Source: Octopus vulgaris
Taxonomy: Eukaryota
Reading direction: 5' to 3'
NCBI GenBank assembly: GCA_951406725.2
Contig: OX597819.1
Location: 110,298,001 to 110,362,000 of the forward strand
Length of the DNA: 64,000 nucleotides
The notes beneath the pieces were generated by a model. It was not told where the DNA came from. It searched no databases and saw only the letters and a program-made list of their open reading frames with translations. Position numbers and translations under genes: made by a program. This document shows positions 45,918 through 47,559 of the stretch, one piece after another. Within the stretch, counting starts at the first letter, position 1, and every line of letters starts with the position of its first letter.

Positions 45918-47171
45918 CTGACGATTAAGGGTTTACAAAACCGATGGAGGACAATACAGAACGATACAATACGATATGATGAGAAGCGTGTAAACAGGAT
46001 TGATTGCGAAAAACGTCTGCAATAACCCAAGCAATTATTCCCCAAAAGAACAGAAACTTCCGAGGGCTTCTCGTAGAAACACCACAAAACCACATCGCCC
46101 TTACCTGTAGAGCAAGGTCATTTTCTTAATCCTCATCTCTTATCGGCAGTTGCATGTTCAGAGCAGTCCCGTTCACTCGGACCATCCTTTCCACATTTAC
46201 TCATTTTCAGCAAATTTGCTGGAAAACAGTACTTCCCTCTCCGGCCTCATTTTCCTTTTCTCCATTCCCAGTTTCCTTTTTCCTCAATAGCACTGCCGGA
46301 CCAAAGATTTCTACAAATTTATCCATGGGCCCCGGTTCGATTGTCCTCTGTAACAAACCAACCATTCACACCGAAGCTCAGAGACTCCCAACGCGTCTCC
46401 CGCTACTATGCCTCTATAGAACGCCATAAAGGAACTTCTGTCGATTGCATTGCTCAACTGGCAGAGAACTGTGAGCGTCTGACGATAGTGCAGGTGCTAG
46501 GTGCCTTGCCTCAGCCTAGGCTCGATCCAGGACCGCAGCTCAGTTAAAAGAACGGGCTGCGGAAAAGCTCTTCCGACAATCGGCAAATACACCTTCTCCT
46601 TCGTCACATCATTGGTTTCTCACCCCGTTCCTTATACAATCAGCTGACTTCAGTCTTTCCTGCATTTTTATACTCTCAGAGCTGATTTACCTCAAGAAAG
46701 GATGGAATAAAGTACTACAGAGACGGAATGTTAAACTCTACAATTGCCATTACAAATACACTTCTATATATCTTGCAAACGCTACATCGACAGACTTTTG
46801 CTATGGCACGCCCTCGAAGGAGGCAAGCTGGCAAAATTGTTGGAACGGCGGATAAAATGCTTATGGGTTTTTCTTTCGGCTTCAGGTTCTGCGCTCCAAT
46901 TCTGCCGATGCTGATTTTGCCTTTCAACATTTCGAGGTCGATAAAATAAGTACCAATCAATTAATGAGTTGATGAGCTCGACTAAACCCCACTCCCCCAA
47001 AATTTCAGGTTTTGTACCCGTCGTAGAAAGGATTATATTATTTGTCTTTTACAATGATACGTCATGAAAGTATGACAGATTAATTAACTAAATTAAGCAT
47101 TAAACATATGAATTGTTACAATGATGCAAATACAAAGACGTCTTGCAAACAACTTGCACATGCAAGTGCTA

Positions 47172-47341
47172 CCAGTCAAAAGCTCCGCATAGCGGAAGTC
47201 AGCAAGTGTATGGGGTCATCAGGAGAGAATGCGCACCGTTTCGGGGCCTACCTCTCGACGGCATCAATGCGCACCGATATGAGGCCCCGCTTGCTAGATC
47301 AGCTGGTTATCAAATAAAGCTCAATTTCTAACCAGCTGATC
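47172..47341 (-). ncRNA. structured GC-rich element containing all hammerhead strands in non-canonical order
   Basis: The minus strand reads GGGGCCU...CCG-UC-GAGAG-GU-AGGCCCC-GAAA-CGG-UGCGCAUU-CUCUC-CUGAUGA. It is flanked by a 13-bp perfect hairpin and a terminal hairpin followed by UUUU. Confidence 0.45.
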
Positions 47342-47507
47342 CAGCTGATAACAATAGAAAATGTTATTTTGTTGTAAAGGAATAAGTTTTCCATGCTTTT
47401 GACAATTTAAATATATCTCTCTATTGTTGGAATTCTGCGTATTTACAATATTTTTGAAATGATGTATTGGCTGTGAAACAAGAGTAATAATAATAATAAT
47501 AATAATC

Positions 47508-47559
<52 letters not shown>

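Follow-up and report, generated by a model that had tools for sequence, protein, structure and literature searches.

The hammerhead strands and the element that carries them

The window studied here is a stretch of 64,000 nucleotides from Octopus vulgaris (assembly GCA_951406725.2, contig OX597819.1, positions 110,298,001 to 110,362,000), and its minus strand carries the remnant of a mobile element, hereafter referred to as the window copy. A preliminary description of this DNA had listed a full set of hammerhead ribozyme strands in an order that differs from types I, II and III, and each of these strands is indeed found at the coordinates claimed for it, as read from the window:

47288-47282, minus strand: GGGGCCU
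47261-47252, minus strand: CCG-UC-GAGAG
47249-47243, minus strand: AGGCCCC
47242-47239, minus strand: GAAA
47238-47236, minus strand: CGG
47227-47216, minus strand: CUCUC-CUGAUGA
47276-47266 and 47238-47228, minus strand: two 11-nt repeats

The outer helix proposed at the same time is also present, with arms at 47296-47290 and 47206-47200 that form seven pairs, one of them G-U. The word CUGAUGA by itself occurs at chance frequency (10 found versus 10.4 expected), and comparison of the window with Rfam gives no match that reaches the gathering score, nor any hammerhead when the limit is relaxed to E<=10. The arrangement of the strands is non-random, for it recurs in G000, the 2.8-Gb repeat-rich genome that was searched, in some 2,300 candidate copies and, with other letters, behind distantly related ORFs.

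When window positions 47165-47355 are used as the query, 2,308 candidates are obtained in G000, and the 40 places that were scored match at 87-100%, starting from about window position 47329. The 30 copies that were fetched have a common 3' end and differing 5' ends, and the longer ones include the end of an ORF upstream of the UTR. A search with the protein piece of this ORF returned 22,632 candidates, several of them in open frames of about 1,100-1,175 codons, and the unit of the element is about 3,737 bp (3.74 kb). In the protein, Pfam identifies RVT_1 at residues 439-683 and nothing else at E<=0.1; its best relatives of solved structure (PDB) are R2 proteins, the endonuclease stretch aligning weakly, and its zinc-finger and C-terminal endonuclease motifs were recognised by eye. 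Judged by its single ORF, reverse transcriptase (RT), 5' truncation and dispersed copies, the element is a restriction-like-endonuclease non-LTR retrotransposon, and the stretch in the window is identified as the last ~195 bp of this high-copy element. Its C-terminal motifs suggest that it is HERO-like, its homologs carrying no names. HERO is described as a mostly non-specific clade in the available text of PMC4640811. Membership of the Penelope-like elements, which requires a GIY-YIG domain, was rejected on the Pfam result, and membership of the retrozymes was rejected because the element is coding. The parts of the element in and next to the window copy are:

47135..47329, minus strand: 5'-truncated RT/restriction-like-endonuclease non-LTR copy, ORF stop plus 3' UTR (from the G000 copies)
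47329..47345, minus strand: fold-back arm at the 5' truncation junction, which repeats 47309-47293 in inverted orientation and belongs to the window copy alone
47321..47323, minus strand: TGA stop of the element ORF (placed by alignment to longer copies)
47183..47198, minus strand: small hairpin (four pairs in 7 of 7 close-lineage rows; conserved at the level of sequence, without covariation)
47135..47168, minus strand: last hairpin and fixed 3' end of insertions (from the ends of protein-selected copies)

The 3' end at 47135..47168 is the predicted start of reverse transcription, and the small hairpin is a candidate protein-binding site close to it. The small Pol III or Helitron-like unit suggested earlier is in fact the 3' UTR of a retrotransposon, which reaches about 47135: the element passes the U-tract, its 3' end lies about 35 nt further, and its 5' ends are variable. 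The 5' hairpin thought to bracket that unit does exist, as 17 bp with one mismatch; the bracketing role falls away, as the hairpin lies outside the family. The other copies match from query base 20-43 onward and lack the fold-back arm, which therefore arose at the 5' junction of the insertion in the window. In the vicinity, a TAA microsatellite, (TAA)25, is present at 47485-47559, 150 bp from the copy, and positions 46817-47050 belong to another dispersed repeat, with more than 10 copies in the window at 68-88% identity.

Fold, conservation and classification of the ribozyme

Alignment with an intact copy shows that the window copy lacks 13 nt between 47276 and 47275, which correspond to the 3' arm of a hairpin (Y) and the 5' strand of stem II. 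The strand order of the family is X5'-Y-II5'-T5'-[III3' UH I3']-linker-[II3' GAAA III5']-T3'-[I5' CUGANGA]-X3', and the following parts of it, together with the outer helix, are seen in the window copy:

47290..47296, minus strand: 5' arm of outer helix O, which extends helix X; differs among relatives, continuous with X in L076 and L081
47285..47288, minus strand: 5' strand of helix X, partner of the four C after A9 (two-sided changes)
47276..47284, minus strand: 5' arm and loop remnant of hairpin Y (alignment to intact copy)
47269..47275, minus strand: 5' strand of helix T, which links stems I and II at their far ends (covariation, junction scoring of relatives)
47252..47261, minus strand: block S, with the stem III 3' strand, the GUC triplet and the stem I 3' strand (sequence, copy starts); predicted cut between 47257 and 47256
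47251-47249, minus strand: 3-nt linker between block S and block G (sequence)
47236..47248, minus strand: block G, with the stem II 3' strand, GAAA and the stem III 5' strand (covariation, alignment)
47228..47234, minus strand: 3' strand of helix T (covariation, junction scoring of relatives)
47216..47227, minus strand: first half of block C, the stem I 5' strand plus CUGAUGA, whose last base is A9 (sequence, covariation)
47212..47215, minus strand: 3' strand of helix X, immediately 3' of A9 (covariation, junction scoring of relatives)
47200..47206, minus strand: 3' arm of outer helix O (comparison with intact copy, folding)

Hairpin Y follows directly after the 5' strand of X, and stem II directly after Y, so that A9 meets G10.1 across a four-way junction of the core, X, Y and stem II without unpaired bases. 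Covariation identifies the intact family fold as a six-helix pseudoknotted hammerhead and, on the same comparative evidence, this hammerhead is non-circularly permuted (order S-G-C), with its backbone opened between A9 and G10.1. The core words CUGANGA, GAAA and NUH are present in the window and in eight relatives, and in the intact family form stems I, II and III adjoin the core in register with covariation. The earlier proposal of a pseudoknotted hammerhead outside types I, II and III, with A9 not directly joined to stem II, therefore holds in the homologs, and it is its assignment of individual helices that changes. In the family a second GGGGCC, deleted in the window copy, provides stem II with its 5' strand, and the GGGG that had been drawn as stem II pairs in the family with the CCCC right after A9, as helix X. 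The two repeats, for which a competing rod had been drawn, pair as helix T within one molecule, tying stems I and II, so that the dimer considered earlier is unnecessary.

The long form, which includes the 13 nt, is found in 26 of 28 protein-selected, 16 of 16 near-full, 12 of 13 5'-selected and 18 of 18 young copies that could be read at this site, and the short form in 15 of the 29 copies chosen by their likeness to the window. Deletions at the Y/II site have several lengths and occur in mixed backgrounds; in a table of variable sites, short and long forms each carry both alleles, and a tree, which included flank columns, left them unresolved. This pattern fits repeated slips during copying. 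The window copy can form stem II with the X strand only, and it is possible that the short form folds as drawn in the preliminary description; the window copy itself is likely to be inert debris.

In an alignment of 10 rows from the close lineage, pairing holds for 93.3% of the 297 cells, compared with 43-58% in slid controls, and two-sided changes are seen in 7 of the 31 pairs (helices X, II, T and III), where a shuffle test is inflated by kinship, according to a warning of the tool. Helix X shows two-sided changes in three of its four pairs and has other letters in L081, L098 and L206. Among 13 loci found through the protein (10 metagenome and 3 genome contigs), the core descriptor matches eight, versus none of 12 viral loci; two of the remaining five align with damaged cores, two end too early and one is a weak match. 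None of the 12 pattern matches in viral contigs has the fold, and no protein relatives were found among the viral contigs. When the junction is scored in 10 sequences against 300 shuffles, L076, L081, L083 and L098 lie above all of them, L080 and L084 above all but one and L061 above all but two; the score is weak in L099 (31/300), and L077 and the window copy lack the four-way junction. The out-of-sample lineages L081 and L098 keep all helices and the 0-nt junction linkers with unrelated letters. A pattern check of two more G000 families, at 33-40% protein identity, finds the six helices, with 0-nt junction linkers, in L202, L206, L208 and L209, four copies out of nine loci printed, with decayed cores; the damaged cores of L078, L079 and families B and C are likewise read as decay. 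All six helices are thus seen behind related ORFs at 33-56% protein identity, with wholly different letters. The stretch C3-A9 (with position 7 alone free), GAAA and NUH are kept where the stems share no letters, and position 7 is U, G or A in the relatives, variable as in known hammerheads. In the eight relatives that were scored the stem I-stem II linker measures 1-5 nt and helix T 3-8 bp. As the homologs keep the core and the stems with compensatory changes, and every one has the same order, the feature is not the one-off rearranged relic that had been considered. Clearly, it is real and conserved, a hammerhead-class variant whose setting is new and which the window represents by a damaged copy.

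A nested-folding program, which cannot score pseudoknots, prefers in L061 and L076 a rod that hides the core, the Y strand pairing with stem I-CUGAU, and in L081 and L098 it already forms X and Y. The preference for the rod implies that the active fold has to compete, and it is possible that the core-hiding rod is an off state. A hammerhead on the plus strand was rejected by eye: the long form has a CUGA-like word there, but no GAAA in register.

Assignment to types I, II or III was also rejected, as the order is reversed with respect to the nested circular permutations and Rfam gives no match. The preliminary description had taken natural hammerheads of types I, II and III to be circular permutations of one order; non-circular hammerheads are known (PMC10085705), though the available text of that study has none with the A9/G10.1 split. 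There, Eckert et al. (2023) describe the hammerhead as blocks S, G and C, each assumed to be uninterruptible, with cleavage shown for SGC, CSG and one GCS example; type SGC was reported from metatranscriptomes, and of the new RNAs a single one, a bacterial GCS candidate, comes from a known genome. In type SGC the linker between stems I and II is typically 3 nt and a helix joins the other ends of these stems (PMC10085705). The family considered here shares with type SGC the core letters, the cyclic S-G-C order, the short I-II linker, the tying helix and the two pseudoknots, whereas it opens the backbone inside block C, which is closed by the four-way junction and two extra helices; its three inter-block links are all covalent, and an animal genome contains thousands of copies of it, both unlike the types in the available text (PMC10085705). 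Of the features that define type SGC, the order S, G, C, the short I-II linker and the tying helix are found, and an intact block C, with the stem II 5' strand at most 2 nt after CUGANGA, is not: this strand lies 5' of block S, and the bases past A9 pair with the upstream strand of X. Insertions at A9/G10.1 are reportedly tolerated in a viroid hammerhead, and the literature search returned no paper on this. A hammerhead opened between A9 and G10.1, or a hammerhead in HERO elements, is undescribed in the literature searched, of which subscription journals and Repbase Reports form little part, so an earlier notice is possible; the available text of PMC7650587, PMC13725137, PMC13580325 and PMC10162972 does not describe the split fold.

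Copy ends and the proposed life cycle

Cleavage of the RNA after GUC should leave some cDNAs that stop at this point. In a search for copies in which the three bases before the predicted site all differ from the element, nine G000 copies (L161-L169) are found to begin at the first base after GUC and to end about 120 nt downstream; eight of them have unrelated flanks and one (L167) is fused to an internal piece of the ORF. In an independent sample, 1 of 30 young copies (L160) starts at the cut as well. Control starts at -9, -3, +9 and +16 gave 0, 1, 1 and 1 raw matches and 0, 1, 0 and 0 true junctions, the -3 match being a real junction, the +9 match lying inside a longer match and the +16 match being an internal variant; the excess at the cut has a p of about 6e-5 on raw matches, four controls being few, and the -9 control bars flanks ending in T, as 8 of the 9 real flanks do. 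These starts indicate that the ribozyme very probably cleaves in vivo. AT precedes seven of the nine copies, and the 3' ends of the element also lie near AT, a weak sign of target preference or microhomology.

The 3' ends are equally well defined. Of 30 protein-selected copies, 29 end +116 to +125 nt after the cut and the other continues as a tandem, which makes it quite probable that reverse transcription is primed internally. From the cut it is about 120 nt downstream to the unit start and about 315 nt to the first ATG in the frame of 1,175 codons. In six fetched loci a partial unit of 315-1,981 nt leads without a seam into a full one, forming a tandem, and among young copies the length of such partial halves extends from some tens of nucleotides up to 1,981 nt. 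In a sample of 30 copies with the first 206 nt of the unit, whose ranking favours copies spanning the whole query, 25 extend upstream into the preceding UTR with no added bases, so that there is no fixed 5' end; 18 pass a second cut site (two sharing a flank), five are truncated inside, none starts at the cut, and none of the 25 second-round copies stops at the second cut site. The cut-site junctions of aligned intact copies are exact, with no bases gained or lost. Private variants are common to both halves in three of the six tandems (one in L061, three in L069 and four in L070, relative to 13 loci), and the other three, whose overlaps are short, have no shared variant. Three near-full copies (L108, L110 and L130) start at +95/+96, in the last UTR hairpin, perhaps a second stop site.

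Internally deleted forms are also seen. Eight of the 30 copies with the first 206 nt have an internal deletion that rejoins the 3' region, and in runs X1-X3, which belong to one study, a 1.25-kb form skips 2,483 nt and is joined head to tail with the ribozyme intact (L061:4595-8335), at a depth of 76-144 compared with about 5-40 for the middle of the ORF. These runs were analysed as contigs, presumed to derive from RNA, and tandem DNA copies would give an equal head-to-tail joint; a circle and a tandem transcript are indistinguishable in contigs, and the joint is therefore only a hint of a circle. The exact deletion joint is absent from the best 30 of 116 G000 candidates and from the listed part of run X16 (76% read), and, as individuals may differ, its absence from the genome does not count as evidence for a circle. 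The 1.25-kb form is a candidate retrozyme-like parasite.

Taken together, these observations suggest a life cycle that we consider reasonably probable as a whole, in which the conserved six-helix hammerhead cuts the element RNA, and reverse transcription starts about 120 nt downstream and crosses the cut on a rejoined circle. Read-through of a partial-plus-full tandem would produce an RNA with two ribozymes, and cleavage would release a unit with both ends clasped together by helices X, II, T and III. Since these four helices retain the upstream end, and stem I and the core remain with the downstream piece, the cut ends would stay together, which would favour their re-ligation; this end-clasping topology offers a reason for the permutation. 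Target-primed reverse transcription would then begin at the internal start, cross the cut site and continue round the circle for a variable length, generating short copies such as the one in the window, full units and more-than-unit tandems, and a few percent of events would halt at the cut and leave the ~120-bp copies. That the crossing takes place by way of a ligated circle, and not by a jump or on uncut multimers, is somewhat favoured.

The cut could also be crossed without a circle, if the RT jumps from the 5' end of the RNA to the adjacent helix-held 3' end, repeated jumps giving the tandems. R2-type enzymes do copy across discontinuous templates, the ~120-bp cut-start copies resemble strong-stop products, and the joint in L167 between the cut and the internal ORF could be a mis-jump; R2 end-to-end jumps usually add bases, however, whereas the junctions here are exact, and we regard the jump as unlikely. 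Quite unlikely is an arrangement in which the ribozyme makes the 5' end of the next tandem unit, as an aid to processing or translation of the kind that HDV-like ribozymes provide for R2, and insertions derive from partly uncut read-through RNA by the internal start. The position of the cut upstream of the unit start and of the ATG is in agreement with such a role, uncleaved multimeric RNA would explain equally well that most copies read through the site, and uncut RNA is the main in vitro substrate in a Penelope-like element (PMC11167929, available text). Yet linear copying of tandems could only shorten the upstream halves, and long ones persist, as do private variants shared between the halves.

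A hammerhead-derived structure that binds protein or acts as a switch without cleaving, with the GAGAG starts reflecting a pause of the RT at a helix boundary, would be consistent with the competing rod, the predicted minimum-energy fold in one lineage, and with the clustering of deletions at the Y/II strands, where the enzyme would stumble; it is very improbable, as the core letters are kept where the stems share none and the starts fall on the exact predicted base rather than spreading over helix ends. As for a scrambled one-off relic, a dimer-only ribozyme or a small Pol III or Helitron-like element, the window copy does lack the 5' strand of the family stem II, and it has self-complementary 8-mers and a 5' hairpin. 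These 8-mers, however, form in one molecule helix T, which is not self-complementary in L081, L098 and L206, the order is identical in all homologs, the hairpin is private and the element extends beyond the U-tract, which leaves hardly any probability for such an origin.

Related retroelements and wider meaning

The comparisons that follow refer to the available text of the cited papers. The element shares with the Penelope-like elements its partial tandems, a hammerhead at the unit boundary, an internal RT start, which has been described in a Penelope-like element (PMC11167929), and a fixed extension past the ribozyme; its protein resembles that of R2 and has, at the C terminus, a restriction-like endonuclease and not GIY-YIG, and its ribozyme is full and pseudoknotted whereas theirs is minimal type I (PMC11167929, PMC7761336). 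For retrozymes, circular templates and longer-than-unit cDNA have been proposed, as has hammerhead-cut RNA; the same features are suggested here, where cleavage and circle are inferred, but retrozymes are small and non-coding with type I or III hammerheads, (PMC7761336), and the octopus element is autonomous, with open frames of 1,112-1,175 codons. With R2, HERO, NeSL, R4 and CRE it has in common one ORF with an N-terminal zinc finger, RT, CCHC finger and endonuclease, as well as variable 5' truncation and internally deleted derivatives like the R2 SIDEs (PMC4640811, PMC6765202). R2, from which ribozymes and deleted derivatives have been described (PMC6765202), has its ribozyme, which is HDV-like, at the 5' end and starts priming at the 3' end (PMC6765202, PMC4640811), whereas the hammerhead lies here within the 3' UTR, at a distance of 120 nt from the end of the insertion, and the 5' end is not fixed.

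The covariation observed in nature breaks a design rule of the best-studied ribozyme, the rule, as stated in the available text of PMC10085705, that CUGANGA and stem II are inseparable, and hammerheads to which Rfam is blind occupy thousands of copies in one animal genome. The non-circularly permuted hammerheads, previously orphan RNAs, would gain a biological job, and the R2-like retrotransposons, which now serve as genome-writing tools, are suggested to include a branch that primes internally and may use circular templates; until now this route was linked to Penelope-like elements and retrozymes. It is conceivable, at somewhat less than even probability, that a widespread autonomous clade of the R2 superfamily uses self-cleaved and self-ligated circular RNA with a seventh hammerhead architecture, whose knot would clamp the ends, together with rolling, internally started reverse transcription, and that deleted circles would parasitise it like retrozymes. 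The role of hammerheads in retroelements is testable in this family because young intact copies and fossil cut ends coexist.

Several further observations concern the element and its relatives. Several distant families (L081:1610-1700, L082:1245-1322, L202-L205 and L207) have a segment resembling a tRNA, with words like the A and B boxes, which was recognised by eye; it precedes the ribozyme in the 3' UTR and, in L202-L205 and L207, comes just past the ORF. The segment might serve the following unit as a Pol III promoter, and ARAGORN reports no tRNAs in L081 and L082. L098, L099 and L100 are retrotransposon pieces in contigs labelled as bacterial genomes, that of L098 also having three tRNA genes, and these contigs are likely to be host DNA within bacterial assemblies. 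In L068 and L073/L181, near-full copies lie head-to-head, resembling the 5' inversions that arise by twin priming.
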